DNA of 64,000 nucleotides, taken from Candidatus Microgenomates bacterium (GTDB lineage Bacteria > Patescibacteriota > JACPGU01). The notes under the pieces were generated by a model. The model did not search any database, was not told where the DNA came from, and saw only the letters and a list, made by a program, of their open reading frames with translations. This document shows positions 5,981 through 63,389 of the stretch, one piece after another. Within the stretch, counting starts at the first letter, position 1. The number at the start of each line of letters is the position of its first letter. The stretch lies in contig JACPGU010000002.1 in NCBI GenBank assembly GCA_016188915.1, forward strand, positions 241,211 through 305,210, in the 5' to 3' direction. The translations under genes were made by a program, and so were the position numbers.

Positions 5981-6036
5981 TCTTCGCCTCTTGTCTTGTT
6001 CTCGGTAAAGTTATATGCTTTAAGCAAAGGAGGAAT

Positions 6037-6495: not shown

Positions 6496-6530
6496 GAGAT
6501 TTTGAAAAATATTTTTTTATGATATAATAT

Positions 6531-6551
6531 GACCGCTGTAGCGGTTTTTTT
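6531..6551 (+). terminator. terminator hairpin (ACCGCTgtAGCGGT + T7) immediately upstream of the tRNA
   Basis: A short stem is followed by a 7-nt T-run. Confidence 0.55.
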
Positions 6552-6623
6552 GCGCTCGTCGTTCAACGGATAGGACGCAGGCTTGCGGAGCCTGTAATAG
6601 AAGTTCGATTCTTCTCGAGCGCA
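6552..6623 (+). tRNA. tRNA-Arg with anticodon GCG (72 nt, no encoded CCA)
   Basis: The manual cloverleaf has acceptor GCGCTCG/CGAGCGC and D-stem GTTC/GGAC with loop AACGGATA. The anticodon stem CAGGC/GCCTG encloses loop TTGCGGA. The T-arm is AGAAG-TTCGATT-CTTCT and the discriminator is A. Confidence 0.6.
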
Positions 6624-6713
6624 TTGCATATTCCCAGCGTCGAATGTTAGGGATGTAGTTTTTGCTAGCGTAGTTATGTTTATAAAAAAAGCCTTGTAAG
6701 AGGGGTTTTTTAT

Positions 6714-7912: not shown

Positions 7913-7915
7913 TCT

Positions 7916-9340
7916 ATGGCACAAAAAAAGAATACCAAAATTTTTGCCGATTATGATCAGCGCTACCAGGAGCGTTATGGTTTTGCCGATGATGCTACAT
8001 CCTATACTCATTTGGGGAAGCCTGGTATAACGCGCGAGACCATTATGGAGATTTCTAAAATAAAAAAAGAACCAAAGTGGATGTTGGAAAAAAGACTGAT
8101 AGCCTATGATATTTTTTTAAAAAAACCCTTACCCAAATGGGGCGGTGATTTGTCAGGAATTGATTTTGGCAAGATTTATTATTACATTAGACCGAGCGAA
8201 AGAACGGAAAAAAAATGGCAAGATGTGCCGGACTATATCCGCAATACTTTTGATAAATTGGGCATCCCAGAGGCGGAAAAAAAATTTTTGGCAGGCGTGG
8301 GAGCGCAATATGAATCAGAAATGATGTATCATTCTATCCAAAAAGATTTGCAGAAACTAGGGGTTATCTTTCTCTCGCCTGATGAGGCATTAAAACAATA
8401 TCCAGATTTAGTCAAAGAATATTTCGGCACCGTAATCCCGGCATCTGACAACAAATTCGCGGCCTTAAATAGCGCTGTTTGGAGTGGTGGATCTTTTATC
8501 TACATTCCCAAAGGAGTCAAAGTAGAGATGCCCTTGCAGACATATTTTCGTATCAATTTTGCCTCCGCTGGCCAATTTGAAAGAACGCTGATTATTGCTG
8601 ATGAAGGATCGGAGATGCATTATATTGAAGGTTGTAGCGCGCCGATTCATTCAACTGATTCTTTGCACTCGGCAGTAGTGGAAATCATTGTCAAAAAAAA
8701 TGCCAAAGTGCGCTATACCACTATACAAAATTGGAGCCGTAATGTTTATAACCTCGTCACCAAAAGAGCGGCAGTTTATGAAGGTGGCAGAATGGAATGG
8801 ATTGATGGCAATCTAGGCTCAAAATTGACTATGAAATATCCTTCCGTCTATCTTTTGGGTGAAGGGGCGCATGGCGAGATTTTGTCTCTCGGTTTTGCCG
8901 GAAAAGGTCGTTGTCAGGATAATGGAGCCAAGGCTGTCCATGCCGCGCCTCGCACTACATCCTTGGTACGCGCCAAATCCATCGCGCGCGATGGTGGCAT
9001 TACTTCTTATCGTGGTTTGGTCAAAATAGAAAAAGGAATGAAAAATTGCTATGCCAAGGTGCAGTGCGACGCTTTGTTGGCAGACAGTAAATCAGTTTCT
9101 AATACTTATCCCACTATGGATATTAGAGAAAAAGATGCAAAAGTAGAACACGAGGCTTCCGTCTCCAAAATAGGAGAAGAGCAGCTTTTTTACCTTAAGT
9201 CGCGTGGTCTGACAGAAGAGGCGGCCATGCACTTGATCGTGGCGGGTTTTTTGGAGCCAATAGTTTCCGGTTTGCCGATGGAATACGCCATAGAATTGAA
9301 TCGTTTGGTGGAACTGGAGATGGAAGGAGCGGTGGGGTAA
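7916..9340 (+). CDS. sufB: Fe-S cluster assembly scaffold SufB
   Basis: The conserved SufB core is present (FIYIPKGVKVEMPLQTYFRINFASAGQFERTLIIADEGS...CSAP). Confidence 0.9.
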   Translation: MAQKKNTKIFADYDQRYQERYGFADDATSYTHLGKPGITRETIMEISKIKKEPKWMLEKRLIAYDIFLKKPLPKWGGDLSGIDFGKIYYYIRPSERTEKKWQDVPDYIRNTFDKLGIPEAEKKFLAGVGAQYESEMMYHSIQKDLQKLGVIFLSPDEALKQYPDLVKEYFGTVIPASDNKFAALNSAVWSGGSFIYIPKGVKVEMPLQTYFRINFASAGQFERTLIIADEGSEMHYIEGCSAPIHSTDSLHSAVVEIIVKKNAKVRYTTIQNWSRNVYNLVTKRAAVYEGGRMEWIDGNLGSKLTMKYPSVYLLGEGAHGEILSLGFAGKGRCQDNGAKAVHAAPRTTSLVRAKSIARDGGITSYRGLVKIEKGMKNCYAKVQCDALLADSKSVSNTYPTMDIREKDAKVEHEASVSKIGEEQLFYLKSRGLTEEAAMHLIVAGFLEPIVSGLPMEYAIELNRLVELEMEGAVG

Positions 9341-9351
9341 TTTACTTAATT

Positions 9352-9918
9352 ATGAAAAAGCAGAAAAAAGAACAATCAGAAAAAGAAATCATTCCAGAGA
9401 AGGTCGCGGAATTTTTTATGGCGACAAAAAAAAGTCAAGAAAAAAATCTAGCTTTTAGTTGGGGCAAAGATGATAGTTTTGAGCAGAGTATTAAAATATA
9501 TCTAGATGGCAAAGAGTCAAAGGTTTGCCTTACTGGTATTTTCGCAGGCTCTGATTTGATGAAAAAAAAGCTGCATTTAGAAATTGTAGCCGCCTCTCCC
9601 AAAACGCAGGCAGAAATTTTGCTCAAAGGCGTTTTGGAAGACCAGGCAGAATTAAATATCGCTGTGAGATTATCTATTCTCAAAAAATCAATTGACGCGA
9701 AAGTCGATTTACAGGCAAAATTTTTGCTTTTGTCTGAATCGGCGCGTGTTCTCATTACTCCTTCTTTAGAAATAGCAGAAAGTAATATTTTGGCCGCTTC
9801 GCATGCTGTAGCCATCGGCTCTTTGGATATGGATATGATTTTTTACATGGCTTCTCGAGGGATAAGCATAGAAAAAGCCAAAGAATTATTGAAAAAAAGT
9901 TTTCTATCGGTAGGATAA
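9352..9918 (+). CDS. sufD: SufD-like protein, short form (C-terminal SufD domain only)
   Basis: The C-terminal region FLLLSESARVLITPSLEIAESNILAASHAVAIGSLDMDMIFYMASRGIS matches the SufD C-terminus. The protein is only 188 aa. Confidence 0.6.
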   Translation: MKKQKKEQSEKEIIPEKVAEFFMATKKSQEKNLAFSWGKDDSFEQSIKIYLDGKESKVCLTGIFAGSDLMKKKLHLEIVAASPKTQAEILLKGVLEDQAELNIAVRLSILKKSIDAKVDLQAKFLLLSESARVLITPSLEIAESNILAASHAVAIGSLDMDMIFYMASRGISIEKAKELLKKSFLSVG

Positions 9919-9923
9919 TTATT

Positions 9924-10226
9924 ATGTGGAGACCAATTTTTGATACTAGCCAGATAAAACCAGGCCAAATCAAATCTGTTACGATAGATGGCAGAGCGAT
10001 AGCTATTTATAATGTTGAGGGGGAAATTTACGCCACAGGTGATACCTGCAGTCATGAACAAGTGTCTTTATCTGAAGGATATTTGGACGGATGCGTAGTA
10101 GAATGTGACGCTCACGGAGCCAAATTTGATATTCGGACAGGCGAGGTCAAATCTTTACCGGCAACTGTCGGCATCAAAACTTATCCTGTTAAAATAGAAA
10201 ACGGAGTGATACATATAAATTACTAA
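9924..10226 (+). CDS. Rieske [2Fe-2S] ferredoxin-like protein embedded in the suf operon
   Basis: The motifs CSHEQ...CDAHG (CXH...CXXH) are present in a 100-aa protein. Confidence 0.8.
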   Translation: MWRPIFDTSQIKPGQIKSVTIDGRAIAIYNVEGEIYATGDTCSHEQVSLSEGYLDGCVVECDAHGAKFDIRTGEVKSLPATVGIKTYPVKIENGVIHINY

Positions 10227-11920: not shown

Positions 11921-12637
11921 ATGAATTTTTTTGAAAAACATTTGCGCAAATTGGAAGTAGAAACAACCACCTTGGTCTTGGTAGCTACTTTAGTTTTAGG
12001 TGGGGTAGGAACTTCTCTTTACACTAACGCGGCGGCTACCCCCACTTTTAATCAGACCATTAACGCGGGGACTTTATCTACTGATATTCGAGATGCCAGC
12101 CGGGTAACTGTCGGCAGTCCGGCAGTAGCCATGGGCGCCAAAACTTTTAGCTTTGATTGTCTATCAGGCGGTTCAGCTGCTACTGGTACCTTGGGTTCAG
12201 CATCAGAAAGAATCTATGTGGACAATCCAGATGCCGCAGATAACGGTTGGACTTTGGCTATCGCGGCCACCGGTGGAGCTACTTCTACTTGGTCAGACGG
12301 CGGTTCCAACACTTATGATTTCAATGATTCTTCTGGTTCTGGTTGTACTGATGGAGCTGACGCTGACAGTAAGGGAGGACAGATGACTATTAACCCATCC
12401 GTAGGTTCAACCACGACCGATTATTCTGGCTCTGACACTACCGGTATTACTTTGGGCAACTCAACGGCTTTTGTTCAGGGCACTACGGATAGTGTCACCT
12501 TGGTGACAGCAGCTAATACTTCAGCAGATATTTGGCGGGGTTATTTCACGGGAGTAACTGTTTCCCAAACTATCCCAGCTGAACAAACGGCGGCCGCCTA
12601 TACTTTACAGTTTACCATCACAGTCTCTGCTTCGTAA
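11921..12637 (+). CDS. small secreted cell-surface protein with a WxL-like C-terminal domain
   Basis: The protein has an N-terminal signal anchor and a Thr/Ser/Gly-rich composition. Residues ~60-238 (VGSPAVAMGAKTFSF...GWTLAIAATGG...YTLQFTITVSAS) are homologous to the last ~190 aa of the 2446-aa protein at 15893..23233. Confidence 0.6.
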   Translation: MNFFEKHLRKLEVETTTLVLVATLVLGGVGTSLYTNAAATPTFNQTINAGTLSTDIRDASRVTVGSPAVAMGAKTFSFDCLSGGSAATGTLGSASERIYVDNPDAADNGWTLAIAATGGATSTWSDGGSNTYDFNDSSGSGCTDGADADSKGGQMTINPSVGSTTTDYSGSDTTGITLGNSTAFVQGTTDSVTLVTAANTSADIWRGYFTGVTVSQTIPAEQTAAAYTLQFTITVSAS

Positions 12638-12655
12638 TTTCTAACATTTTAAAAA

Positions 12656-13849
12656 ATGGCCAAAACAAAGAAAAAAAATATTAAATTAAAATACTTTGTC
12701 AGCCTCGTTTTCGCGGTCGTGATTTTGCTGTCAGGCTCTCCATCTTGGGCCATAGAATACGGTGGTATTGGTGGCCGGCCAGCCTATCCGCAGCCAGGCA
12801 ACGCTAGAAGCGAATCTATTTTTATCCATACAGCCGAGCCAGGCCAAATAGTCTCCGAAGGAGTAAAAGTTATCAATAATAGTGAGACTACCAGGACGAT
12901 TTCAGTCTACTCTACTGATTCGGTGGTTTCTTCTGGAGGTGCTTTTGCTTGCGCTCAAAAAGTAGATGCCAAAGAAAATGTGGGCGGTTGGATATCTTTG
13001 GAGAAAGAAATGGTCACTTTGCGCTCATTGTCTTCGGAGGTTATTCCTTTTACTATCAATGTTCCGCAAAATGCCGGTGTGGGCGAACAGTCAGGCTGTA
13101 TCGTTATTCAAGAGATGAAAGACTCGTCCGCCGGTCAAAATTTGAATGGTTTGGCGCTTTCTTTTCGCACTGCTATTCGCGTTTCTGTGACGGTACCGGG
13201 AGATATTACCAAAAAATTAGAGATTACGGGATTTTCTAAAACAAAAGGAGAAAAAGGCAAAATAATCTTTCAGCCCAAGGTGAAAAATCTTGGTAATGTC
13301 TCTGTTGATGCCGATGTGGAAGTCCGTCCCAAATATTTTTTTGGAGCAAGCGTCAAAGGAGATGATGGAAAAAAAATTGTTCTAGGTGGGGAATACCCGA
13401 TTTTACGCGGGCAAGAATCGGAATGGAATATGGATATGAAAAGTCCTTTTTGGGGCGGTCTATATCAGGCTATTCTTGCCGTTCGTTATAATGCCGATCC
13501 GAAGGTAGACGAGAACATAACGCAAGATGTCATCTGGACACATCTCTCTGTTTCACCAGTTTGGTTTTTTGTCTGGCCCAGTCTTCCCGCCTTGGCAATG
13601 GAGATAATTATTCTTTTAGCTATCTTGGCCTTGCTTTATTTCGTGATAATCGTGCAAAAAAGAAAATCTTGGATCAAGCACAGTTGGATTGAGCACAAAG
13701 TAAAATCCGGCGACAGCGTGGAGCATCTAGTGGAGCATTATCATGTCGCGTGGAAACTTTTTGTCAAAACCAATCACTTGAGGCCTCCGTACACTTTGAA
13801 GGTGGGCGAGACGGTGAAAGTGCCACCAAAGCCGGAAGGGAAGGCTTAA
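12656..13849 (+). CDS. DUF916/DUF3324-like cell-surface anchor protein with a C-terminal TM hairpin and a LysM-like tail
   Basis: The protein has a signal peptide (MAKTKKKNIKLKYFVSLVFAVVILLSGSPSWA) and a beta-rich ectodomain. A ~35-aa hydrophobic block follows (VWFFVWPSLPALAMEIIILLAILALLYFVII). The tail VKSGDSVEHLVEHYHV...LKVGETVKVP resembles LysM. The architecture matches the anchor protein of WxL loci. Confidence 0.5.
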   Translation: MAKTKKKNIKLKYFVSLVFAVVILLSGSPSWAIEYGGIGGRPAYPQPGNARSESIFIHTAEPGQIVSEGVKVINNSETTRTISVYSTDSVVSSGGAFACAQKVDAKENVGGWISLEKEMVTLRSLSSEVIPFTINVPQNAGVGEQSGCIVIQEMKDSSAGQNLNGLALSFRTAIRVSVTVPGDITKKLEITGFSKTKGEKGKIIFQPKVKNLGNVSVDADVEVRPKYFFGASVKGDDGKKIVLGGEYPILRGQESEWNMDMKSPFWGGLYQAILAVRYNADPKVDENITQDVIWTHLSVSPVWFFVWPSLPALAMEIIILLAILALLYFVIIVQKRKSWIKHSWIEHKVKSGDSVEHLVEHYHVAWKLFVKTNHLRPPYTLKVGETVKVPPKPEGKA

Positions 13850-14189
13850 GAAAATGAAGCTCTATGGGCTTTAAGCCCATAGTATCTCTTGTTTCCCTTC
13901 GGGACAAGAGATACGAGCCGTGTGGCTATTCAGCCACATTGATACGGCTCTAATCTGCGTAACATCCTCCGTCCTCCGATTCGGAGAACTCCGGGCTTGG
14001 CTTCATCCATCCCGCCAAGGCGGGATGGATTTCGCCTAAGATGTTATAAAAAATTAAGAAATTAAGAAAATAATCATTACCTACATCTTCTCGCCCGCTC
14101 TGTTAGCGGGCGAGATTTTTGATAGAAAAAACCCGCCACTTGTAAGTAGCGGGCGAAGTGAGCAAGCAAGGTAGAGTTCCCCTACCTTT
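13850..14189. other. GC-rich intergenic block with at least 8 consecutive stem-loops (possible structured RNA, or REP-like palindromes plus terminators)
   Basis: Hairpins include CTATGGGCtttaGCCCATAG, ATCTCTTGT..ACAAGAGAT and the nested GAGCCGTGTGGCTattcAGCCACattgatACGGCTC. Others are ATCCATCCCGCCaagGCGGGATGGAT, TCGCCCGCTctgttAGCGGGCGA and GGTAGagttcccCTACC followed by a T-run. GC content is much higher than in the flanks. Confidence 0.45.
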
Positions 14190-15716
14190 TTATTTCAGTA
14201 TGAGTTCTGATGGTGGGCGAAATTTGTAGCAGACTCTAAGCGCGTCGTGGATAGGGTGTCCCAGAAAGTTCGCGAAGAAGTCCTGCTCTGGTTCCTCGTC
14301 CTTTTTGTCAAAGAGTTCCAGCGCGCGGTCGACGACGGCAAAGAAGCTGGCCCACCATTTGCGAGTGCCGAGGCGCGCCGTCATAGAGCATCCGTCCACC
14401 ATGGCGTCAATGCCTCTTTTTTCCATGTAGGAGAGGAGCGAGTCGAAGAGTTCAATCCAGCTCTCGTTGGCGATCTCGGTCCAGACATGGCCGTGTTCGG
14501 ACAATACATCGGTTAAAGCCATCAGAATAGCGATGAGCGCTCCGGCCGAAATGGTGTTGATGCTGTTATCTTCCTTTTTGGCGATAGATTCTCTTGCCTT
14601 GGGGCCGACCACCCTCCACATATTGGTCTTGGCGATTGGAGGAAGATCTTTACCGCCCAAGCGTTGGTTGGCCATGATGACGCTTCTGATCTCGTTGCCT
14701 GATGCCACCTCGTCATAAATCTCAGCGATGAGCGCCTTGGCTCCCGGATAGACGAAATTGTAGATGCGCCGAAACTGTTCTCCGCCGGTAAGAAAGTCCT
14801 CCTGAATGTACTCAAAAAGCGCCTTGACTCCGAATCGGGAACAGTACTGGCGGATGACGCGAGCCACCTGATCCACGGAATCGATGAAGGATTCTTGCTG
14901 GCCCATCTTATGGCGAATGAAATATTGGTAGAGAGCTTCCACCAGTCCGAAGGGAGCGGCCAGCAAGCCCGATCTTTCACCAGTCAGGTCGCTGATACAC
15001 TCCTTTTCCAGAGTGGTTTGGAACATGAAGGGCGCGCCAATCAATGTTCCCCAAGCGAGCGTCACATCGGTGGCTTCCTCAATGGAGGCGCCCCCATTTT
15101 GTTCCACGGTGATGGAGCAATTGATGCCCGATCCTTGCTGGAAAAGTCGTCTCACAGTGTCGCCCATGCCCTTGGGGCAACAGCCGATGATGTTGATGTG
15201 CTTGGGTATCCTGATTCCCTCGTCTTTGAGGTATTTGATCAGAAACCCATGCGAGAAGCCCAGGAAAGCGCCTTTTTTCATCAAGGAGAAGATCTTCCGG
15301 TAGTGCATCACTTGCGCGTTGTCGTTGATGAGGAGTAATACCAGGTCAGATTTCTTGACGACGGCAAACATTTCTCCGAGGGTGCCATTTTCTTCGGTGA
15401 AGCCGGCCTCTCTTGCCTCGGAGGCGGACTGACTGCCCTCCCGTAGGCCGACGACGACTTTGATACCCGAGCCCTTCAGGCAGCCCCATAAATTTTGAGC
15501 TTGAGCCGGCGCTTGCGAGCCCCAGCCGATGACGCCGATTTGCTTGATGCCGGCTTCTTTGAGCGCCCTGATGGCTGTCGCTCTTTGTCTTTCCCCTCCT
15601 TTGACGATCTGTTCGGTTGTGCCTCCGATTTTGATCTCCTCCGTCCGGAAAAATGCCGAAAGAATCTCATTGCCTTTTTGCAGATCGGGATTTCTCGTTT
15701 CTGTTACTGTGGTCAT
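14190..15716 (-). CDS. ilvC: ketol-acid reductoisomerase-like protein (long class-II-length IlvC homologue)
   Basis: The motifs IGVIGWGSQAPAQAQNL, GFSHGF and PKGMGDTVRR align with the KARI Rossmann domain (GYGSQGHAHAQNL, AFAHGF, PKAPGHTVR). The protein is 508 aa. The gene has ~55-60% GC against a ~40% background. Confidence 0.75.
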   Translation of the reverse strand: MTTVTETRNPDLQKGNEILSAFFRTEEIKIGGTTEQIVKGGERQRATAIRALKEAGIKQIGVIGWGSQAPAQAQNLWGCLKGSGIKVVVGLREGSQSASEAREAGFTEENGTLGEMFAVVKKSDLVLLLINDNAQVMHYRKIFSLMKKGAFLGFSHGFLIKYLKDEGIRIPKHINIIGCCPKGMGDTVRRLFQQGSGINCSITVEQNGGASIEEATDVTLAWGTLIGAPFMFQTTLEKECISDLTGERSGLLAAPFGLVEALYQYFIRHKMGQQESFIDSVDQVARVIRQYCSRFGVKALFEYIQEDFLTGGEQFRRIYNFVYPGAKALIAEIYDEVASGNEIRSVIMANQRLGGKDLPPIAKTNMWRVVGPKARESIAKKEDNSINTISAGALIAILMALTDVLSEHGHVWTEIANESWIELFDSLLSYMEKRGIDAMVDGCSMTARLGTRKWWASFFAVVDRALELFDKKDEEPEQDFFANFLGHPIHDALRVCYKFRPPSELILK

Positions 15717-15892
15717 CTCGTCACCTCGCGTAGTTAGATTTTTAACGCTAAATATAGCTTATTTTATTATACCAAAAAAAATAAAAACAGCAATATTTAT
15801 CTTGTAATAGCCGAAATTAGACATGTTAGATTGGGGAAAAGTGAGGGTTTTCTCCTCTTCTAAACCTTATTTTTATCTTGTAAAATAAAGGT

Positions 15893-18800
15893 ATGGTGAA
15901 AAAACATTCACCAAAGGGCAAAAAAGCGCGGATCGGCGACGCTTTGTTCACTTTGAGAAAAAGAGGCAAAAGCCCCTGGTTTTTTGCTGTTTTTTTAATT
16001 GTTTTATTTTTAATAGGACAATTAACGAGCAAAGCCTATGCAGCCAATTTTTATCCCAATCTTTGTTTTGGTACTGCCGATAGCAAAAAAGCGGTCGGGC
16101 AGATTAAAAATAGCGCGTCTGATCAGACCCCTTCAGAATTTGCAGTAACAATAGACGAAGAGAACGTGACATTGGATTGCGCGCAATTTCGTGATGAGGG
16201 AAAATCCAGCAGAGTGCGCAAGGTGCAGGAAGCAACGCTAAAGATTTTTTGGAGTACGAATACAGATAGTATTGGCGAAGGGGCAAAAGCGAGTTTTTGG
16301 CAAACAAAGAAAGCTTTGGCGGCCGATGAAGAGACTACGACAGAAATTGTTAGCGAGAAAATAACAGAAGAGATAATTGCTCCGGAACAAATAGAAAACG
16401 TAATTTCTGGCCAGACAATAGGAACAACAGAGCCGATAGAAGATACAGTTTCCGATCAAGACGCGCAAATAAATAAGGCAACTATCGCTATTTCTTATAC
16501 TTTGGATAATGCCATTTGGCAAGATTTGGCAAATGTTGGGATAAATAATCTTGCGACAGAATTTCCTCTAAATCTCAAAGATTCAAGCGATATCGCCAAT
16601 TTCCATTTGCGTGTCACTTCAATCGGAGATTTTGGTCAAAATTTGGTTTTGTTAGACGGTTTTGCCATTAGCGCTGTATTCCAAAACGATTTTAGCGATG
16701 AAGAAATAGAGGCTTTACCTAGGGTAGATATTGGCGAAGAACTTTTTGTCGCGCCCAAAAAAGATTTCCGGGCAGATGAAGCAGTGGAATTTGAAATCAA
16801 AGGCTTTCAAGATGCGGGCACTTCGCAAAACCCAACTGCTTCTCTATCTGAAGCCCGAAGTATTAGTATTGCAAATCTTAAATCTCCCGCCCACCTTGTT
16901 GCGCAAGGTGTTGTGGGCAGGCAAATCTCAAATCTTCAATATATTTTCCCAGCTCATGCTGAAGAAATCACGGCTGGCGCAGTGCAGGTTTTGACCGCTG
17001 AAGTTTATGATCCTATTGGCAACACTGGAACGATAACACCTTTGGTGCAAGAAATAGGAGGAACGACCAAGATCATTGTCAACAAGCCCACTCGTGGATT
17101 CCGTCCCGGCAGGTATCGCTTGCATCTGGAAGTTTTGGATTTGGCTTCCAGCCAAATTCTTATTTCCGATCAAAATTTTACTTGGGGAGTTTTGGCTATC
17201 AACCTTAACAAATCGGTATATTTGCCCTTTGAAAGTGCTTATTTGCAAATGGGAGTGCTAGACGATCAAGGTTCTACCATCTGCAATGCTAATTTAAAAT
17301 TGGAAATAACAGATCCTTTGGGTGGGTTTACGATTTTGACGACCGCTTCTGGGTCGATTTCTTTAAGTGATCAATGTGATAAAAATAATGTGACGGACAC
17401 ACCCGATTATTTCGCTTATTATACAACCGGGGATCTCGGTGTCTATCAAATGACGCTGACCAATCTTACCAATCTTTATTCCGTTACAGACACTTTTGAG
17501 GTCAGAAACTATGCGCCGATGACGATAGAAAGAATCTCGGCCACGCGCATCAATCCCTTTAAGGCCAATTATCGAATGATTTTTGAATTGCGTGCCAACG
17601 AGGCTTTCTCCGGTGCTTTTTCTGAAACTCTGCCGGATAATTTTGAAGTAATTGATCCGACTATTAATAATGATACGGCTTACGATTTACTAATAACTTC
17701 CGGCGACAAAAAAATTATTTCTTGGAATCTCAGTCTCAATCGCAACCAGAGAAAAACCATTACCTATACTTACGATTCACCTGATGTTTCTCCTCAGCTT
17801 TACTTGGCAGGACCAGCTTCGGCGGGTACGATTTTTACCGAAACCAGAAATTGGCAGATCGCATCCGACGCTGCTTGCTCTTCTAACGGTACGGGCAATT
17901 GGAGTAATGGCGCCACATGGTCAGGATGTACGGGAACGGGAGGCGTGCCGGCGGCAGATGATACTATCACCATAACTGACGGTCATGCGGTAACATTGGA
18001 CACCACGGCCACCGTCGCGGGGCTTACTCTCTGCGACTCGGCGTGCAATGCCGATACTTCTTTGACCCATAGCGGGAGCAATGCCCTGACAGTCAATGGC
18101 ACGGTGACCATCAATGGTGGCGCCGGCGCCGGCGACAACACGCTCTGGACTATCAACGGTGGTTCGGCCACCGTTTCGGGAGCAATATCGTATAATCCGC
18201 AGTCTACGACTGGTGGTCGCGATGCCAAAATAGCACTATCCACCGGTACGCTCAACGCCAACGGAGGAATCGTCTTTGAGAATACCGCCGGCTCGGAAGA
18301 CAACCAAATGCTGGCGATGACCAGCACCGCGACTGTCAATCTCAAAGGGAGTATCAGCAATCAAACTCTTGCCGATATTCAGCCGGGGACGACGAGTACC
18401 TTTGTCTATATTGATAGCGCGGCGGCGCAGACGGTTGTCTTTGACGCGACCAGTTCCACCTACGCCAAGCTGACTTTCAGCAACACGCACGCTAGTGGCG
18501 TAACGCTTGGCGCGGCGCTTACCGCTACCAATACAACGGGGGACGTCAATGTCCTGCACGGAATATTTGTAACGGGCGGTTACAATATGACTGGTACCGG
18601 TTCCAATACGCTAACTATGAGCAACGGCTCGCAATTTGATCAGACGGGTGCTACTCTCATCAGCAGTTTCGCCGGTCTTTCCACTAGCGCGACGAGCACC
18701 TACCGACTTTTGACCACCAACGCCACTTTTTCCATGGCGACTTTGATCTATGGCAATGTGGTTGTTTCGCCGCAGGCCAACAATGTGGCGGTGACGCCCA

Positions 18801-21800
18801 GTTCCGGCACGCTGTCTATGCAGGGGTATCTGACGTTGGGAGGAGTGGGCGCCTATACCGGTATCACTTTAAATATTGACACTTCCGATCCGACCTTCAA
18901 TGTAGATGGCGATACGACGATAGGCGCCAACCATACATTGATCTTGAGCGCGACGGGGACAGCTACTTTCGGAGGAAGCTGGACGAATGCTGGCACCCTA
19001 ACCCACTCCTCCGGCACAGTCACTTTTGACGCGACCGACACGGGCAATACTATCAACAACAATTCTTCATCTTTTTACAATCTCAAGCTCAATGGCTCGG
19101 GCGGAGAATGGTCGGCGCTGACCAATACCTTGACTATCGCCAATGACCTCACAGTATCGGCCGGTACGCTTAATAATAGCGCTGGTACAGCCGACATTAC
19201 GGTTAACGGCAATGTGGCTTGTAATGGTACTTGCGGCACTGTCAATCTCACTTCCGGCACTTTCCTGCAAAGTGTGACGACCAACAAAGCTTTCGGCACC
19301 AATGTGGCGGTTGGCACTAATTGGATTTTTAACAATCTCACTTTCACCGGCACTTCGGATACTATCACCACCAGCTCTACCGGCACCGGCACTATTGAGG
19401 TCAAAACCAATTTGACGATTTCAACGGCTACCACTTTGGACGCGGGCAACCGCACCTTCATCCTTTCCGCGGCCTCCACCACTCCCGCCACTTTCACCGG
19501 CACTTTGACGGGTAATACTTCCATCTTTCGCTACACCGGCGCGGGCAACACCACTATTCCGGCCAGCACCGGGTACAGTACGGTTCAGCTCTATCCGGGC
19601 GCTAATTCCGCCATCTTCACTCTCGATTCTGGCACATTCACTCTGTCGGGAGATTTCATCGCGGGCGGAAATTCTTCTTACACCGGCACCACTGTTACGC
19701 TCGGCGCGAACAATCCAACGATGAATATCACGGGCGACTTTACCGTTTGCGCCTCTTCTTGTCCTGAAATGACTTTCACCAAATCATCTAACACTATTAC
19801 TCTAAACGGCACAGCCAATACCAAGACTATCACTGACAACAACACGACCAAGCAAGACCTTGGGAAAATCGCTATCGGCAACGCCTCGGCTGCCAAAATC
19901 GTCAATATGGGCTCTACTTTGAAATTGGAGACGCTCAATATCACTGCCAACGCCACTTTTTCTTTCAACAACGGAGCCTACACTTTGACTATTACCGGTA
20001 CCGGCACGCCATTAACCAAAACCGGTACCTTTACGGCGACCACTGGCACGACGACCTATGTTGGTAATGGCGCGACAACTATTACGGCGGCCACTTACAA
20101 CAATTTACAGATTTTTCCCGGTGGCGCCTCCGTTACTCACACCTTGGCTTCCGGCACTTTCACTATCGGTGGCGATTTGGATATCGGCGGGAATGCCAAT
20201 GGCGCTTCCACTGTCGTTACCGCTGGCGCGAACAACCCGACCATTGGTTTGACGGGCAATCTTGTGGTCTGCGCGTCCACTTGTTCCAACCAGATGACTT
20301 TCACCAAATCTTCCAATACTTTAACGTTGAATGGCACGGCCAATACCAAGACCATCACCGACAACAATACCACCAAGCAAGACCTCGGGGCTTTGGCTAT
20401 CGGCAATGGCGCAACGGCCAAACATATCGGGCTTGGCTCCAATATCAAGGCCACTTCCGTCAATATTACCGCTTCCGCTTTTTTTGAGCCGGGCGCCTAT
20501 ACGGCGACTTTGACAGCCAACGGCACGCCTTTTACCGTCTCCGGCACTTTCACGCCCGCCACTTCTACCATCGAATACGCCCCCGCTTCCACGACCGGTG
20601 TTACGGTAGCCTCCACCACCTATCATCATGTTATTTTCAATAAAACCTCCAACACTTTTTCACTGACCACATCCGGCATTACTACCGATACCGCTAATGG
20701 CGGTGGAGATTTGACTATTTCTGCCGGAACACTAGACACTGTTTCCGGCTCTAATTACCCGATTTCTATTGGGGGTTCTTGGACTAATAGCGACACCTTT
20801 ACCGCCAATTCTGGCACTGTTACCTTCACCTCGGTTAATACTGGAGAAACGCTTTCCGGCACATTGTCCGGCGCTTCTAGTTTCAATAACATAATTTTTA
20901 ATGGTTCAGGCGGAGAATGGACGCCAGGTTCAGCTGTTAATTTGAATGGCGATTTGACCATGACGGCCGGCACTCTGCTCGGCACGCAAAATATTACCGT
21001 CGCTGGCGGAGACGTGACTGGTGATGGCGCTATCACTCTTACCGGCGGGACATTCAAAGTGACGGGCGCTTCCGGCACGGGTTTTGGCGGGGCGACAGCT
21101 TGGAGTTTTTCCTCCCTTACTTTTGGCGATGGTGCTGATAGCGCGACGACGACCGCTACCGGCTCCGGTGGGATAACGGTTTCTTCTGTTCTGACCATTG
21201 ATGCCACTCATACTTTGGACGCGGCTGGTAAGATATGGACACTTTCCGGAACAACTGACCCCTTTGTTAAAACGGGAACTTTTACTCCTAATACTTCTAC
21301 TTTTAAATTTACCGGCAATGGCGCGACCAATATCCCCGCCACCACTTATTACAATTTGCAAGTTTTTCCCGGCGGAGCAGTCACCCATACCTTGGGCGCG
21401 GGAACTTTCACCATCAATAATAATCTGGATCTAGGCGGTAACACCAACCCGGCTTCAACAGTAATCACGGCGGCGACCAATTCTCCGACGGTGAACATTA
21501 CAGGTAATTTGACGCTTTGCGCCACTACTTGTTCCAATCAGATGACCTTCACCAAGGGCGGAACAATTACTTTGTCTGGCGCGGCTAATACCAAGAGCCT
21601 GACTGACAACAACACGACCAAGCAAGATCTGGGCGATATCACTATCGGCAACGCCTCCTTGGCCAAAATCATTCAGCTTGGTTCGTCGATCAAGGCGACC
21701 TCCATCAATATTACGACCAATGCAACGCTTGACGCTAACGGGACGAACACTATTACTTTGACCGGTACAACTACTCCTTTCACTACTAACGGCGCTTTTA

Positions 21801-23233
21801 CTTATTCCACCAGTACCGTGGTTTTCACCGGCAACGCATCTTTTACCATTCCGGCAACCACTTATTATAATTTAACTTTTAGTCCGACCGTGGTGACGAC
21901 CGGCAAGACCTATACTTTTGGCGGAGCAGTGGCGGTCAATAGCGCCTTGGATATCAATCCGGACGCGGCTACCAGTCTTTCTTTGACGGTCAATCTCGGT
22001 GGCGCGCTCACCGGCTCGCCGGCTGTCACCGTTAGAAGGCAAAATTCGGCGGCTTCCGTTTTGGATACTACGGCCGGCAATTATGGTATTACGGCTACCA
22101 GTTTTGACATCCAAGCAGGCGGGACAGTGACACTTAACGCTTCTACTGTTTCGGCTTCCGGCGCGGTGACCATTGCTTCATCGGGGACGTTAAATGCCAC
22201 TTCTGGCACTTTCAGTATTGGTGGCAATTACACGAATAATGGCACTTTTTCTAGCAACAACGGCACCGTTACCATCAACGGCTCTTCGCAGCAGACTTTG
22301 GCCGGAACGATGACAACGACCAACGCTTTCAAGACTCTGACAATTACCAATAGTAGTGGCGCCGATCCCGATGCTTCGCCTTCGGTAATTTTTTCGGCCG
22401 CGGCGACCGCCACCACTTTCAACGCGGTGACGGCCTCAACCAAAATTCGCTTCTTGGCGGGCGCGACCTATACTTTTACCACTTTCAATGTCAATGGCCA
22501 GGCGACCGGTACGCGCGTTCAGCTCCGTTCCTCTTCCTCGCCGACCGCTTGGTTGCTTGTCGCTAGTGGCAGTCCGGTGGTTTATAATACCAATCCCAAA
22601 GATTCCAATGCTTCCGGCGGGAGCAGCATTGATGCTTCAGCCGCATCCAATTTGGACGGTGCGGGCAATACCAATTGGAATTTTGGAGGACTTTCTACTG
22701 ATATTGTAGACAGTAATGGCGATCCAGTGGGTAGTCCAGCGGTAGCTATGGATAACGCTTCTTTAGGTTTTGCTTGCCAGTCTGCTACTGGTACCTTGGG
22801 GGCGGCTTCGCAGAAAATGCGTGTTTCCAATAGCACGGGCAATCCTTCATGGACCCTAACTATCGCGCCGACTGATGGGGCCACTACGACTTGGACGGCT
22901 GGCGCGCCCTTGTATGATTTTAACGACGCGACAGCTTCTGGCTGTTCGGATGGGATAGACGCTGATGGAGTGGGTGGACAGCTAACGATGAACGCTTCGG
23001 CAGGGACGGTGACGCCACAGGGCGGTTGTTCTTCTACGGGAATTACAAAAGGTAATTCAGCTGCTTTTGTGCAGGGCACTACTGACAGCGTCACCATTTT
23101 GTCGGCTAGCGGTCTGGCGGAAACTAGTTGTTATTGGGATTTGACAGGCGTTTCTTTGAGTCAATCAATTCCGCAAGAGCAAACTATCGGCAATTACTCT
23201 TTGAATATGACGATTACTTTGACTGCGAATTAA
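15893..23233 (+). CDS. giant (2446 aa) secreted Thr/Gly/Asn-rich tandem-repeat surface protein with a WxL-like C-terminal domain
   Basis: The protein has an N-terminal signal anchor. A beta-helix-like low-complexity region carries about four ~180-aa tandem repeats (NNPT.N.TG...CAS.C..MTFTKSSNT.TLNGTANTKTITDNNTTKQDLG). The C-terminal ~190 aa are homologous to the 238-aa protein at 11921..12637. Confidence 0.8.
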   Translation: MVKKHSPKGKKARIGDALFTLRKRGKSPWFFAVFLIVLFLIGQLTSKAYAANFYPNLCFGTADSKKAVGQIKNSASDQTPSEFAVTIDEENVTLDCAQFRDEGKSSRVRKVQEATLKIFWSTNTDSIGEGAKASFWQTKKALAADEETTTEIVSEKITEEIIAPEQIENVISGQTIGTTEPIEDTVSDQDAQINKATIAISYTLDNAIWQDLANVGINNLATEFPLNLKDSSDIANFHLRVTSIGDFGQNLVLLDGFAISAVFQNDFSDEEIEALPRVDIGEELFVAPKKDFRADEAVEFEIKGFQDAGTSQNPTASLSEARSISIANLKSPAHLVAQGVVGRQISNLQYIFPAHAEEITAGAVQVLTAEVYDPIGNTGTITPLVQEIGGTTKIIVNKPTRGFRPGRYRLHLEVLDLASSQILISDQNFTWGVLAINLNKSVYLPFESAYLQMGVLDDQGSTICNANLKLEITDPLGGFTILTTASGSISLSDQCDKNNVTDTPDYFAYYTTGDLGVYQMTLTNLTNLYSVTDTFEVRNYAPMTIERISATRINPFKANYRMIFELRANEAFSGAFSETLPDNFEVIDPTINNDTAYDLLITSGDKKIISWNLSLNRNQRKTITYTYDSPDVSPQLYLAGPASAGTIFTETRNWQIASDAACSSNGTGNWSNGATWSGCTGTGGVPAADDTITITDGHAVTLDTTATVAGLTLCDSACNADTSLTHSGSNALTVNGTVTINGGAGAGDNTLWTINGGSATVSGAISYNPQSTTGGRDAKIALSTGTLNANGGIVFENTAGSEDNQMLAMTSTATVNLKGSISNQTLADIQPGTTSTFVYIDSAAAQTVVFDATSSTYAKLTFSNTHASGVTLGAALTATNTTGDVNVLHGIFVTGGYNMTGTGSNTLTMSNGSQFDQTGATLISSFAGLSTSATSTYRLLTTNATFSMATLIYGNVVVSPQANNVAVTPSSGTLSMQGYLTLGGVGAYTGITLNIDTSDPTFNVDGDTTIGANHTLILSATGTATFGGSWTNAGTLTHSSGTVTFDATDTGNTINNNSSSFYNLKLNGSGGEWSALTNTLTIANDLTVSAGTLNNSAGTADITVNGNVACNGTCGTVNLTSGTFLQSVTTNKAFGTNVAVGTNWIFNNLTFTGTSDTITTSSTGTGTIEVKTNLTISTATTLDAGNRTFILSAASTTPATFTGTLTGNTSIFRYTGAGNTTIPASTGYSTVQLYPGANSAIFTLDSGTFTLSGDFIAGGNSSYTGTTVTLGANNPTMNITGDFTVCASSCPEMTFTKSSNTITLNGTANTKTITDNNTTKQDLGKIAIGNASAAKIVNMGSTLKLETLNITANATFSFNNGAYTLTITGTGTPLTKTGTFTATTGTTTYVGNGATTITAATYNNLQIFPGGASVTHTLASGTFTIGGDLDIGGNANGASTVVTAGANNPTIGLTGNLVVCASTCSNQMTFTKSSNTLTLNGTANTKTITDNNTTKQDLGALAIGNGATAKHIGLGSNIKATSVNITASAFFEPGAYTATLTANGTPFTVSGTFTPATSTIEYAPASTTGVTVASTTYHHVIFNKTSNTFSLTTSGITTDTANGGGDLTISAGTLDTVSGSNYPISIGGSWTNSDTFTANSGTVTFTSVNTGETLSGTLSGASSFNNIIFNGSGGEWTPGSAVNLNGDLTMTAGTLLGTQNITVAGGDVTGDGAITLTGGTFKVTGASGTGFGGATAWSFSSLTFGDGADSATTTATGSGGITVSSVLTIDATHTLDAAGKIWTLSGTTDPFVKTGTFTPNTSTFKFTGNGATNIPATTYYNLQVFPGGAVTHTLGAGTFTINNNLDLGGNTNPASTVITAATNSPTVNITGNLTLCATTCSNQMTFTKGGTITLSGAANTKSLTDNNTTKQDLGDITIGNASLAKIIQLGSSIKATSINITTNATLDANGTNTITLTGTTTPFTTNGAFTYSTSTVVFTGNASFTIPATTYYNLTFSPTVVTTGKTYTFGGAVAVNSALDINPDAATSLSLTVNLGGALTGSPAVTVRRQNSAASVLDTTAGNYGITATSFDIQAGGTVTLNASTVSASGAVTIASSGTLNATSGTFSIGGNYTNNGTFSSNNGTVTINGSSQQTLAGTMTTTNAFKTLTITNSSGADPDASPSVIFSAAATATTFNAVTASTKIRFLAGATYTFTTFNVNGQATGTRVQLRSSSSPTAWLLVASGSPVVYNTNPKDSNASGGSSIDASAASNLDGAGNTNWNFGGLSTDIVDSNGDPVGSPAVAMDNASLGFACQSATGTLGAASQKMRVSNSTGNPSWTLTIAPTDGATTTWTAGAPLYDFNDATASGCSDGIDADGVGGQLTMNASAGTVTPQGGCSSTGITKGNSAAFVQGTTDSVTILSASGLAETSCYWDLTGVSLSQSIPQEQTIGNYSLNMTITLTAN
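19690..21700 (+). repeat. in-frame tandem coding repeats (~540-bp period, about four copies) inside the giant gene
   Basis: A recurring DNA block containing accaagcaagacct occurs at ~19850, ~20390 and ~21625. The protein-level repeats are listed above. Confidence 0.7.
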
Positions 23234-23302
23234 TGATTTACCTATTGTTGCTGTGAGGACTGATGTTATAATAAAAACAAGTTTTATAATTAATTTTGTT
23301 CT

Positions 23303-23446: not shown

Positions 23447-23461
23447 AATAACTTCTAGCAA

Positions 23462-56479: not shown

Positions 56480-56702
56480 TTAGCTTAGGCTAAACTCAAA
56501 ATTTTGTTCAAAAATTTTATCTAAAAAATCTCTAATTTTATATCTAAATATTGTTTATCAGAGGTTACTTAACAATGATAGACCCAAAGAGCATAACACG
56601 GATAGAATTTCTTTTGTAGCCCCTTTCTCTTTACTTAAATCGCAGATGTCGTACAATACTCCTATCCATACTTCATGCCTCATAATTCATGCTTCATCAC
56701 CT

Positions 56703-57668
56703 ATGAACCTCAACGATCTCATTCGCCAATTCTTGGAACATCTGGAAGTTGAACGTGGCAAAAGCCTCAAAACGATAGAAAACTATCAGCACTATTTGAA
56801 TCGTTTTTTGATTTTTGCCGAAGGTTTGGGCGTGAAAGAGCCGACACAGATAGATCAAGATGTCATTCGTCAATACCGTCTCTACTTGAACCGTCTGACC
56901 AATCAAAAAGGCGAAATGCTCAGAAAAGTGACGCAAAATTATCATTCCATCGCCTTGCGCGCTTTTTTGAAATATCTGGCCAAAAGAGATATCAAATCTT
57001 TGTCGGCGGAAAAAGTGGAATTAGCCAAACAAGAAGACCGAGAAGTGAGCTTCTTGGATGCCCAAGAATTGGAAAGGCTGATGGCATCTCCCGCGATGTA
57101 TGAAAAAAATGTGACCAAAAGAATGCGTGATGAAGCGATTCTTCATACTTTGTTTTCCACCGGTCTGCGTGTCTCGGAGCTTTGCTCGCTTAATCGTGAG
57201 CAAGTGGATTTAGAGCGAGGCGAATTTTCCGTTCGAGGCAAGGGGAGCAAAATCCGCGTCGTTTTTTTGTCAAATGAGGCCAAAGAATTTTTGCGAAAAT
57301 ATTTGGAGAGAAGAAAAGACAATCATAAGGCTGTTTTTGTTCCGGTCTTGCATAAAGTGCGCGGAGCGGGTAATTCCCCGACGTCCGACGTCGGGGAGAA
57401 AATCGGGCGCGAGATGCGCCTGACTTCTCGTTCGGTGGAGAGACTAATCGCTCATTACGCTAAATTGGCCGGCATTATCAAAAAAGTTTCACCGCATACC
57501 TTAAGGCATTGCTTCGCGACCGATTTACTGATGAACGGCGCCGATATTCGTAGTGTGCAGTCTATGCTCGGCCATTCTTCTATTACCACCACGCAAATTT
57601 ATACTCATGTGACCAATCAACAATTGCGCGATGTCCATCGCGCTTTCCACGGGAAGACAAAAAAATAA
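56703..57668 (+). CDS. xerD: tyrosine site-specific recombinase XerD/XerC-like
   Basis: The N-terminal SAM-like domain (LIRQFLEHLEVERGKSLKTIENY) and the C-terminal catalytic motifs HTLRHCFATDLL...LGHSSITTTQIYTHV are present. The protein carries a ~40-aa insertion. Confidence 0.8.
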   Translation: MNLNDLIRQFLEHLEVERGKSLKTIENYQHYLNRFLIFAEGLGVKEPTQIDQDVIRQYRLYLNRLTNQKGEMLRKVTQNYHSIALRAFLKYLAKRDIKSLSAEKVELAKQEDREVSFLDAQELERLMASPAMYEKNVTKRMRDEAILHTLFSTGLRVSELCSLNREQVDLERGEFSVRGKGSKIRVVFLSNEAKEFLRKYLERRKDNHKAVFVPVLHKVRGAGNSPTSDVGEKIGREMRLTSRSVERLIAHYAKLAGIIKKVSPHTLRHCFATDLLMNGADIRSVQSMLGHSSITTTQIYTHVTNQQLRDVHRAFHGKTKK

Positions 57669-61682: not shown

Positions 61683-63389
61683 CTAAAACTCTAAATTCCA
61701 AACCTTATCTATAGAATATTTGGATAATTCTTGTGCTCTTTCCTTTATACTGTCTTCATTCCACGCGTCTCGTTGCAGATATTTTGAAAATATTTCTATA
61801 CCTTGAGCATACTCAACTAGCCCATGATTTTGGCCACTACCAGCTTTTTTGGTTTTCCAATCAGAATCTCTTATGGATGAATTGAGTTGTTTTGTTATTA
61901 AAGTTAAATTGCCTAATGTTAATATTAGATCGTCACGGTCATTTTCCTGCTCGTTTGTTAAATTATCGTCTTTCCAGTTATTCCGCCATTTTTTTGGCAT
62001 CACATGCTCTAGGCTATATTCGTCAAAATACTTAAGTTCCGTAGAGTTTAGATTGCTCCTAATAGATCTTTCAATTAAGTAAAGAATTCCTTTGGCTTGT
62101 TTGTTGCTTAGATCAGATTGTTTGATACCTTCTTCAACATCTTGATCGGAAGGCATATAATTAATTTTCTCCCCCTTCATTTCAATAAGCTCCTTCAATT
62201 TTTCTAGCGTGTTTATCTCGTTATTTATGAAGCTCCTAAATAATTGGTTATAATTTTTTGTCGTTTTCTTACAGATTAATCTTCGCATTAAATAAGCCTC
62301 AAGATATCTAAAAATTTTGTTCCTTTCATCTTGATTGGTAACCTTTTTTGCTACATACAGGATATACGGGATAATCGTCGCCGTATCCAACCCAAACATA
62401 ACCAAATTCAATCTTTGGACATAATCATTTTTGTTTACATCCTGTTCTACGATCTTTGGATTAACTGTGTTTTTATAAACAGAAGCATACTCTTTTAATT
62501 CACTTACCACTAAATCTTTAACTAAGCCATACTTAGCAATAAATTCTTTATACGAATTGAATACAGAATCAACCTTAAAATAACGCTCCTTATCATCAGA
62601 GGTAACATTAAGATCCTTCTCTTGAATTTTTATAAATAAATATGATTGCAAAAATAGATCTATATTATTTCTGATGCTTCGGCCTGAAGTAACTTCTTGA
62701 TCCCAATATTCCTTAATCTCGTCATCTTTTTCAAAAACATCTCGCCAGTTTTTGTTGTAAAATTCTATATCGTCTCGGAATAAGTAATTTTTTAGCAATT
62801 CAGCAGTTGTCAATCTAACACCAAGAGAGTTTATGGTATCAAAAATCTGTTGCTCATCTTCATTGAAAAGAAGATCAATGCCGACAAATAAAACATTAGA
62901 TAATAGATTGTTTGGATTTATTTCATTTGCCTCAATATTTTTTAGAAAATAGTCGTAACACCTGCTTATTTGGCTCTTCTTCTCTTTTGCATCAAGTTCT
63001 TGGTCTGTCAGTATTTTTTCAAAAATAGGTTTATCTGAGTAATTATGCTCTAAAATTATATTATTATTAAACATTGTAAAGATTTCCTGAAACTTTTCAG
63101 GTGTTTCATTTTTATTAAACAATGCCTTAAAAAACAACATAACCGTTGTTAATCTTTGTTGGCCATCAATAATTGTTCTAACATTATTTTCATTTACCTG
63201 CGTCTCCTGTTGTTTTAATATAACCGATCCCATGAAGTAGGGGCAGTTGGCACGAGAGGCATACCTCATGTCATCTAAAAATCTCTCCCATTGTTCTTCT
63301 TGCCAAACATAAGATCTTTGAAAATGAGGTATTTTCAATTTATTGGCTCTATTAAATATGTCAGATATATTTCTTTTTCCAGCTTCCAT
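61683..63389 (-). CDS. GmrSD-family (DUF262 + DUF1524) type IV modification-dependent restriction endonuclease candidate
   Basis: The N-terminal DUF262/ParB-like motifs are KIPHFQRSYVW and IIDGQQRLTT. The C-terminal DUF1524 His-Me finger is EHVMPKKW...N...NLTLI..LN. Confidence 0.8.
   Translation of the reverse strand: MEAGKRNISDIFNRANKLKIPHFQRSYVWQEEQWERFLDDMRYASRANCPYFMGSVILKQQETQVNENNVRTIIDGQQRLTTVMLFFKALFNKNETPEKFQEIFTMFNNNIILEHNYSDKPIFEKILTDQELDAKEKKSQISRCYDYFLKNIEANEINPNNLLSNVLFVGIDLLFNEDEQQIFDTINSLGVRLTTAELLKNYLFRDDIEFYNKNWRDVFEKDDEIKEYWDQEVTSGRSIRNNIDLFLQSYLFIKIQEKDLNVTSDDKERYFKVDSVFNSYKEFIAKYGLVKDLVVSELKEYASVYKNTVNPKIVEQDVNKNDYVQRLNLVMFGLDTATIIPYILYVAKKVTNQDERNKIFRYLEAYLMRRLICKKTTKNYNQLFRSFINNEINTLEKLKELIEMKGEKINYMPSDQDVEEGIKQSDLSNKQAKGILYLIERSIRSNLNSTELKYFDEYSLEHVMPKKWRNNWKDDNLTNEQENDRDDLILTLGNLTLITKQLNSSIRDSDWKTKKAGSGQNHGLVEYAQGIEIFSKYLQRDAWNEDSIKERAQELSKYSIDKVWNLEF

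Follow-up and report, generated by a model that had tools for sequence, protein, structure and literature searches.

A divergent plant-type ketol-acid reductoisomerase gene, probably acquired horizontally, in a surface-protein locus of a Candidatus Microgenomates bacterium

A 64,000-nucleotide stretch of DNA from a groundwater Candidatus Microgenomates bacterium (assembly GCA_016188915.1, contig JACPGU010000002.1, positions 241,211 to 305,210; hereafter the window) encodes on its reverse strand a ketol-acid reductoisomerase (KARI) of 508 amino acids, deposited at NCBI as MBI2448390.1 under the name 'ketol-acid reductoisomerase [Candidatus Microgenomates bacterium]'. The gene is probably a functional member of the plant-type class II, acquired horizontally and kept by vertical inheritance since. 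KARI is an enzyme of valine and isoleucine synthesis, and the bacteria of the Candidate Phyla Radiation (CPR, or Patescibacteria) are defined by missing biosynthesis; genes that they gained and kept under selection therefore indicate what constrains the episymbiotic lifestyle. The window protein adds to a known enzyme family a new member that is unusually divergent and whose host was not expected; it is no new kind of system.

The reading frame is intact and is the sole long one in the segment 13850–15740, where an initial annotation made from the sequence had placed a KARI homologue of this length. Pfam bore out that identification with matches to KARI_N (PF07991; E value 4.4e-33; score 114.6 bits, cut-off 20.6) and KARI_C (E value 3.9e-19), and the motifs quoted for the homologue were found as GVIGWGSQ, LGFSHGF and CPKGMGDTVRR. 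The best relatives of known structure are the enzymes of rice (Protein Data Bank accession number 3fr7, E value 7.6e-116) and spinach (1qmg and 1yve, E value 1.7e-114), and residues 20–504 align with residues 19–507 of 1qmg. The AlphaFold2 model, computed from an alignment of 34 sequences, has a mean predicted local distance difference test (pLDDT) score of 89.4 and a predicted template modeling (pTM) score of 0.90. Superposition of the model on spinach 1yve resulted in a template modeling (TM) score of 0.90 and a root mean square deviation of 2.2 Å over 504 columns, compared with TM scores of 0.65 for the E. coli class II enzyme 1yrl and ~0.5 for class I enzymes. Length, the closest alignment to plant sequences, the model and a clade bootstrap of 100 all place the protein in the long, plant-type class II.

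The window enzyme shares with the plant-type enzymes of known structure (1YVE/1QMG, 3FR7) a Rossmann N-terminal domain and a duplicated, knotted C-terminal domain over the full length, the catalytic and Mg2+-ligand residues, the GWGSQ motif and the LRxGSxS loop, at 42–45% sequence identity. It differs from them by the longest branch, by many changes at otherwise conserved positions, by two deletions, and by its host, a small-genome CPR bacterium and not a prototroph. E. coli IlvC (1YRL/3ULK), with 17–18% structure-based identity, is more distant, and the E. coli-type class II enzymes represent an independent lineage of domain duplication. Both lineages have in common the reaction family, the two-domain logic and the eight polar active-site residues.

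Comparison with related loci located the insertion. The gene at the left flank of KARI encodes a WxLIP/LysM protein with many homologues in Patescibacteria. The nearest (P0144, 57–58% identical) is encoded on contigs L090 (GCA_964355795.1) and L091 (Hainich well H52), where the gene order is SmpB, two small open reading frames, Rrf2, cysteine desulfurase, small WxL-like protein, WxLIP protein and large protein. The small WxL-like protein of L090 is 61% identical to that of the window, and its large protein is 52% identical to the giant surface protein at the right flank of KARI. No KARI was found in the cassette of L090 and L091, where a spacer of 176 nucleotides parts the WxLIP gene from the large protein gene, nor in the same cassette of the more distant Patescibacteria L093 (Falkowbacteria) and L094, in which the small protein, the WxLIP/LysM protein and the next large co-directional gene follow one another with spacers of ~100 nucleotides. 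The proposed insertion of KARI into a surface-protein locus is thus upheld by three related loci (L090/L091, L093 and L094) that have the cassette without it.

Both edges of the insert could be placed to within a few bases. At the right edge, the last ~65 nucleotides of the L090 spacer (and likewise of L091) align with the window upstream of the giant gene, and the homology resumes at the sequence ATTGGGG at position 15829. At the left edge, the terminator of the WxLIP gene and its TTTTTGAT tail (a T run and GAT) end at 14123; the tail matches CTACTTTTGAT in L090. No integrase, transposase or recombinase was found among the genes beside KARI in the open reading frames of the window and their Pfam matches. 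A possible 7-bp repeat, ATTGGGG, was seen in two genomes at one junction each, namely the right junction of the window and the left junction of the Hainich contig described below. A single-gene segment of ~1.7 kb would have brought KARI into an ancestor of this Microgenomates lineage, where it came to lie on the opposite strand between the WxLIP/LysM terminator and the sequence upstream of the giant gene.

The composition of the gene argues for a foreign origin at the level of codons. At third codon positions, the GC content (GC3) of KARI reaches 0.656, the highest value among 51 open reading frames of the window, whose mean is 0.407 (standard deviation 0.081; z value of KARI ~3.1), and the codon-usage distance is the largest among those longer than 200 codons. 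The neighbouring genes have GC3 at the host value, ~0.25 below that of KARI. Selected codon bias is an unlikely cause of the high GC3, as the genes for ribosomal protein L25, BipA, FtsH, NDK and SOD have values of 0.37–0.43. The initial annotation had described the whole segment as 55–60% GC, which proved too high: the segment has a GC fraction of 0.520 (0.50–0.56 in windows of 300 nucleotides), the coding sequence 0.532 and the whole window 0.424. The GC-rich part is the coding sequence only; the 176 nucleotides of the 5' flank (15717–15892) have 29.5% GC. The stretch from 18 to 23 kb is also GC-rich (0.50–0.55) owing to the many Thr, Gly and Ala residues of the giant surface protein, whose gene has 54% GC at second codon positions, so raw GC does not set KARI apart, and the tetranucleotide distance of 14001–15500 reaches only z = 1.8. 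The compositional break claimed earlier therefore holds for GC3 and codon usage and not for raw GC or tetranucleotides. The values fit partial amelioration from a donor with a GC3 of 0.7–0.85.

Other GC3-rich genes occur in the window, in the stretches 33655–36115, 39204–40511 and 57712–58746. They encode a dCTP-deaminase-like protein (0.53), DoxX (0.60), a Pyr_redox_2 flavoprotein (0.50), a DEAD-box helicase (0.53) and a double zinc-ribbon protein (0.57), and may be further acquisitions.

Homology searches and phylogeny also point outside the CPR. The best 120 database matches are proteins of ~490 residues that are 45–50% identical to the window KARI. The few named ones belong to Chloroflexota (Tepidiformaceae, Anaerolineae), and two of the nearest homologues carry Chloroflexota names. 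Three homologues could be located on contigs of 0.5–6 Mb with 58–66% GC. Their KARI genes have a GC3 of 0.71–0.84, one adjoins ilvD, and the hosts have GC-rich genomes of 3–6 Mb. The homologues average 66% identity to each other and 62% to the rice enzyme, compared with 45–50% between the window KARI and all of them. A neighbour-joining tree places the window KARI, on the longest terminal branch, within the plant-type class II clade, which has a bootstrap of 100. Among 1.84 billion cluster representatives, no full-length match exceeded 48% identity and only the fragment P0347 was closer; searches of GTDB genomes and metagenomes of the Joint Genome Institute (JGI), with query-specific peptides and by alignment with the Hainich fragment, gave no close relatives. 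The literature search returned no paper that links KARI or ilvC to CPR or Patescibacteria. The horizontal acquisition that the initial annotation had put forward is supported by the KARI-less relatives, the GC3 outlier, the nesting in the plant-type clade and the homologues in GC-rich genomes. The data are consistent with a GC-rich, non-CPR donor followed by partial amelioration, and KARI may have come from such a lineage or from an unsampled one.

Two candidates for source and vehicle were dropped. P0095, the nominal sister sequence in the tree, has a long branch itself, lies on a contig of housekeeping genes and groups with a bootstrap of 30. A phage vector found no support in the viral scan, which gave only KARIs of metagenome-assembled genomes (MAGs) of giant viruses at 39% identity. 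The corresponding IMG/VR contigs, binned as giant viruses (L096–L100), encode plant-type KARI homologues that are 39–41% identical to the window KARI. In the database clustering, the representative of the 90%-identity cluster that contains the window KARI (P0412/P0413) is an unrelated JGI fragment of 57 residues, annotated as a phosphoenolpyruvate (PEP) mutase family enzyme, an artefact that hid the self-match.

An orthologue at the same site bears on the age of the insertion. The fragment P0347, 82 residues long and 76% identical to KARI, leads to L095, a contig of 540 nucleotides with a coverage of 1 from the 0.1-µm fraction of Hainich well H43. L095 codes for the last 122 codons of KARI with 82% amino acid and 79% nucleotide identity to the window copy, including the unusual DGCSMTARLGTRKWW sequence. 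Beyond the KARI stop codon, its reverse complement reads into the WxLIP terminator and spacer of L090 with 78 of 81 bases identical, up to ATTGGGG, where the sequences diverge; a terminator analogous to that of the window WxLIP/LysM gene adjoins the junction directly in both L090 and L095. Since L095 reads KARI and then the WxLIP terminator, it represents an orthologue from a second lineage, with site and orientation unchanged, and the transfer is therefore old and not a fresh island. The sequences indicate that, among Hainich relatives very close to each other, some have KARI at this site and others do not.

The 110 codons compared between the window and L095 have diverged by 0.104 nonsynonymous (dN) and 1.24 synonymous (dS) substitutions per site, a dN/dS ratio of 0.084. 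The dN of SmpB between the window and L090 is 0.112; in its divergence KARI has therefore kept pace with a housekeeping gene. In the overlap, L095 has seven of the nine changes of the window KARI at conserved columns, including DGCSM for the family sequence DNCST, and these are therefore fixed features of a subfamily and not signs of decay. The simplest history would be one gain before the split from the Hainich groundwater relative, vertical descent under strong purifying selection and clean loss in the near-identical Hainich strain of L090. Placement with vertically inherited CPR homologues, which had been considered at the outset as the outcome that would argue against transfer, was found only within this narrow CPR clade, after the acquisition. 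The gene would thus represent an enzyme of an amino-acid or vitamin pathway that came from outside, uses host signals, was conserved across a lineage split and yet was dispensable in a near-identical strain.

Comparison with KARI structures found the active site complete. The eight residues that we take, from published structures and mutagenesis, to form it are all kept: H156, K182, E239, D243, E247, E418, E422 and S444 correspond to spinach H226, K252, E311, D315, E319, E492, E496 and S518, and are invariant columns in the 34-sequence alignment. The glycine-rich GxGxxG motif is intact (G61-V-I-G-W-G-S-Q68). In the NADPH loop, G90-L-R92-E-G-S95-Q-S97, the contacts to the 2'-phosphate, R92, S95 and S97 (spinach R162, S165 and S167), are invariant or nearly invariant columns, and the two Lys residues that flank the loop in plants are Glu and Gln in the window protein. 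NADPH binding is predicted from the kept Arg and Ser contacts, and we infer from the sequence that the protein is an active Mg2+- and NADPH-dependent reductoisomerase. By analogy with the family, the N-terminal Rossmann domain would bind NADPH, the knotted, duplicated α-helical C-terminal domain would hold two Mg2+ ions via D243, E247, E418 and E422, and the enzyme would act on 2-acetolactate or 2-aceto-2-hydroxybutyrate by alkyl migration and reduction. Other 2-keto acids may also be reduced, as by other KARIs.

Several observations weigh against a conventional, vertically kept and functional transferred gene. The protein deviates at 32 of the 176 columns that are at least 95% conserved, compared with a median of 1 and a maximum of 17 for other members. 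Among the altered positions near catalytic residues are GMGPS to GMGDT (P to D, S to T) and ERGILLGAV to ERSGLLAAP, and DNCST to DGCSM (N to G, T to M) adjoins the catalytic Ser; five residues are deleted after the GMG loop and six near residue 352. With changes beside the catalytic Ser and in the GMG loop, canonical substrate specificity is not guaranteed, and a shifted substrate preference is possible. The protein scores 175.5 bits with the NCBIfam ilvC equivalog model TIGR00465, below the cut-off of 226.15, as well as 133.2 bits with PRK05479 (cut-off 336) and 67.6 bits with PRK05225 (cut-off 713). The scoring covered the window protein, the models derive from sequences of class I and the E. 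coli type, and the shortfall may come from the difference in subtype as well as from divergence. Within the plant-type clade the position of the window KARI has a bootstrap of at most 30, and no other protein among ~15 billion exceeds 50% full-length identity to it, so that no donor can be named. The left junction (13884–14023, 140 nucleotides) is not bridged by independent Logan contigs. The evidence for the orthologue is the one contig of 540 nucleotides and single coverage, which has an in-frame TAG at its positions 44–46 where the window has TTG, a one-base difference; the TAG may be a sequencing error or mark a gene on its way to loss. Finally, no ilvB, ilvH, ilvD, leu or pan gene was found within the 64 kb by Pfam among open reading frames of at least 100 residues. 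The description of KARI as a lone gene without ilvB, ilvH and ilvD partners thus stands for these 64 kb, about a fifth of the 311,798-bp contig, and reaches no further.

The 2-dehydropantoate reduction or redox balancing suggested by the initial annotation are reasonable hypotheses on which the window gives no evidence either way. A repurposed KARI, in an organism that has lost the rest of branched-chain synthesis like most Patescibacteria, would act as a stand-alone 2-keto-acid reductase, for example as a 2-dehydropantoate reductase in place of PanE on the route to coenzyme A, or on keto acids of the host. A precedent is the reduced genome of Buchnera, in which IlvC stands in for PanE (PMC4306246), and PMC4353338 describes KARIs as promiscuous reductases. 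As in the window organism, KARI is kept in Buchnera in a genome with fragmented biosynthesis, and substrate ambiguity gives it a second job; in contrast to the acquired window gene, which is known from sequence, the Buchnera gene is ancestral and its role was shown by complementation. The long branch, the fixed changes beside Ser444, which the Hainich orthologue shares, and the lack of partner genes in the 64 kb would agree with repurposing. However, all residues of the isomerase step are kept under a dN/dS of 0.08, panB, panC and coa genes are not seen in the window either, the window covers only a fraction of one contig, and KARI stands apart from other ilv genes in large, probably prototrophic genomes too. 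We regard repurposing as possible, though on balance unlikely. It is doubtful that the gene founds a CPR-specific KARI subfamily with a remodelled pocket (DGCSM, GMGDT, ERSGLLAAP) and serves, in a symbiont unable to make branched-chain amino acids, as an NADPH-dependent 2-keto-acid reductase or reductoisomerase that works alone; if it does, converting host-derived keto acids or supplying pantoate for coenzyme A would be possible jobs. If the rest of the genome has no ilv partners, the gene would present a tractable case of a single promiscuous enzyme that patches a fragmented pathway; if it has them, an ordinary pathway acquisition. In either case it offers enzymology a very divergent plant-type KARI.

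Other explanations concern the history of the locus. A site-specific mobile cassette that inserted independently at ATTGGGG in the window and Hainich lineages would account for the presence of this sequence exactly at the right junction of the window and at the left junction of L095, there followed by GTTGGGG, for its single copy at the empty site of L090, and for the coexistence of KARI-positive and KARI-negative versions with a 96% identical spacer. The lack of an integrase or transposase beside KARI, a dN equal to that of SmpB as co-divergence predicts, and the fact that each junction is known from one genome only, with no repeat at the left junction of the window, make this improbable, and two insertions of a cassette are a weaker explanation than a single gain followed by loss. 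Ancestry of KARI in the CPR, with vertical descent, loss in most lineages, and composition and branch length reflecting fast evolution, would agree with the shared locus of the second lineage, and CPR proteins are often fast-evolving. It is very improbable, as three other Patescibacteria loci have the cassette without KARI, the neighbouring genes do not share its GC3, the protein is nested with plants and large-genome bacteria instead of lying outside them, and the literature search gave no report of KARI in CPR. That KARI arose from faulty assembly or binning, or is a functionless passenger in decay, is scarcely credible. The break of the Logan contigs at the left junction and the TAG of L095 would speak for it; against it, one Logan contig links KARI with 11.5 kb of downstream host genes at 100% identity, L095 has the same adjacency to the WxLIP terminator, the reading frame is intact, with expression signals and a low dN/dS, and the TAG is a single base in a single-coverage contig. 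Acquisition from outside the CPR with vertical maintenance is therefore preferred here.

The features of the locus are collected in Table 1. The transferred gene would now use host-like, AT-rich signals, with an extended −10 element and a ribosome-binding site ahead of it and a terminator of its own behind it. The −10 element, which lies within the 29.5% GC spacer, was not listed by the consensus promoter scan because its −35 hexamer is weak; from its sequence, it probably works as the KARI promoter.

Table 1 Features of the KARI locus in window coordinates.
Feature	Position	Strand	Remarks
WxLIP/LysM membrane protein, 397 residues (left flank of KARI)	12656..13849	+	MBI2448389.1; LysM and sub-threshold WxLIP_PGBD
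Stack of five near-perfect hairpins	13862..14050		3' of the WxLIP gene, outside the insert
WxLIP/LysM gene terminator	14089..14120	+	11-bp stem and T run
Inserted cassette, ~1.7 kb	14124..15828		KARI terminator, coding sequence and promoter region; edges inferred within a few bases
KARI intrinsic terminator	14125..14154	-	10-bp stem (14154-14131) and T run; 36 nucleotides past the stop codon
KARI coding sequence, 508 residues	14190..15716	-	plant-type class II; intact, sole long open reading frame of the segment
Shine-Dalgarno sequence GAGGTGA of KARI	15721..15727	-	4 nucleotides ahead of ATG; read from sequence
Extended −10 element TGgTATAAT, putative KARI promoter	15766..15774	-	~50 nucleotides upstream of ATG
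Conserved upstream region of the giant gene (ATTGGGGAAAA..CTCTTCTAAACCT..TGTAAAAT..ATG)	15829..15892	+	alignment with L090 and L091
Giant surface protein, 2446 residues (right flank of KARI)	15893..23233	+	WxL-like C-terminal domain

The 3' flank of KARI is rich in hairpins. Its spacer of 340 nucleotides (13850–14189) folds far more stably than shuffled sequence, with z values of −9.8 and −11.4. The window has 21 perfect hairpins with stems of at least 9 bp, against ~2 expected by chance, and four of them lie within 254 nucleotides of this flank. The initial annotation had read this palindrome-rich flank as a sign of transfer. The richness is real, and comparable stacks follow the same gene in KARI-less relatives, with folding energies per nucleotide of −0.37 (L090) and −0.45 kcal/mol (L094) against −0.42 kcal/mol in the window; the stack therefore belongs to the 3' region of the WxLIP gene and is no footprint of transfer. 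For the same reason, a structured RNA, a repetitive extragenic palindromic (REP) or miniature inverted-repeat transposable element (MITE) or an attC site that would mark the insert was dropped, and a search of the spacer against Rfam gave nothing credible. The stems are perfect on both strands and look like DNA or terminator palindromes. A direct repeat of 10 nucleotides, TTAAGAAAAT, at 13846 and 14062 brackets the stack; the ends of the Logan contigs fall elsewhere. These contigs come from two runs and match the window at 100% identity; they break off at 13883 in both runs and at 14024, and the gap between could stem from low coverage, polymorphism or a repeat. The adjacency of KARI and the WxLIP gene is backed by their consecutive NCBI accession numbers and by L095.

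The surrounding cassette (11921–27748) was described earlier as a pair of WxL-like genes with KARI between them. In detail, the immediate left neighbour is the WxLIP/LysM gene and the small WxL-like protein of 238 residues (11921..12637) is encoded one position further out. The last ~190 residues of the giant protein are 45% identical to this small protein, and the shared C-terminal domain sustains the description in part; the Pfam WxL model has no match in the cassette proteins, for which 'WxL-like' is a fair description, with family membership not demonstrated. The locus resembles the WxL/Csc-type loci of Firmicutes in its combination of small and giant proteins with common C-terminal WxL-like motifs (WTL, YWDL) and in the weak WxLIP_PGBD match of the membrane protein. 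It differs from them in the unmatched Pfam WxL model, the sub-threshold WxLIP match and the added LysM domain, these two being all that Pfam recognizes in the cassette. The set of small WxL-like, WxLIP/LysM and giant protein is conserved across diverse Patescibacteria (L090, L093, L094), and a protein of 1428 residues with a PG_binding_1 domain comes after the giant protein.

The other genes of the window encode translation factors, the Suf system, nucleotide salvage, cell-wall functions and large surface proteins, and SufB is 73% identical to a protein from a Patescibacteria MAG; NCBI assigns the LysM protein at the left flank of KARI to Candidatus Microgenomates. Relative to the collinear L090, the window has two extra blocks between common genes, 3074–6624 and 7169–10226. 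One contains SOD, an RRM protein, BipA and tRNA-Arg and the other sufC-sufB-sufD-Rieske (with sufU), and several rounds of rearrangement or expansion have shaped the region with respect to L090. Near-identical perfect hairpins of 33–35 nucleotides (..CTTGCGAAGGTGTCACCTTCGCAAG..) occur 30 kb apart at 1570–1604 and 32139–32171 and may represent a REP-like family of repeated palindromes. Very long perfect palindromes are present at 43053–43102, 43258–43299 and 54517–54562 (stems of 24, 20 and 21 bp), two of them beside a tRNA-Ser cluster. The block 56646–64000 is AT-rich (31–35% GC) and encodes a tyrosine recombinase (56646..57668) and, downstream of it, a restriction endonuclease of the GmrSD type (61683..63389); it may represent a mobile island or one for defence.

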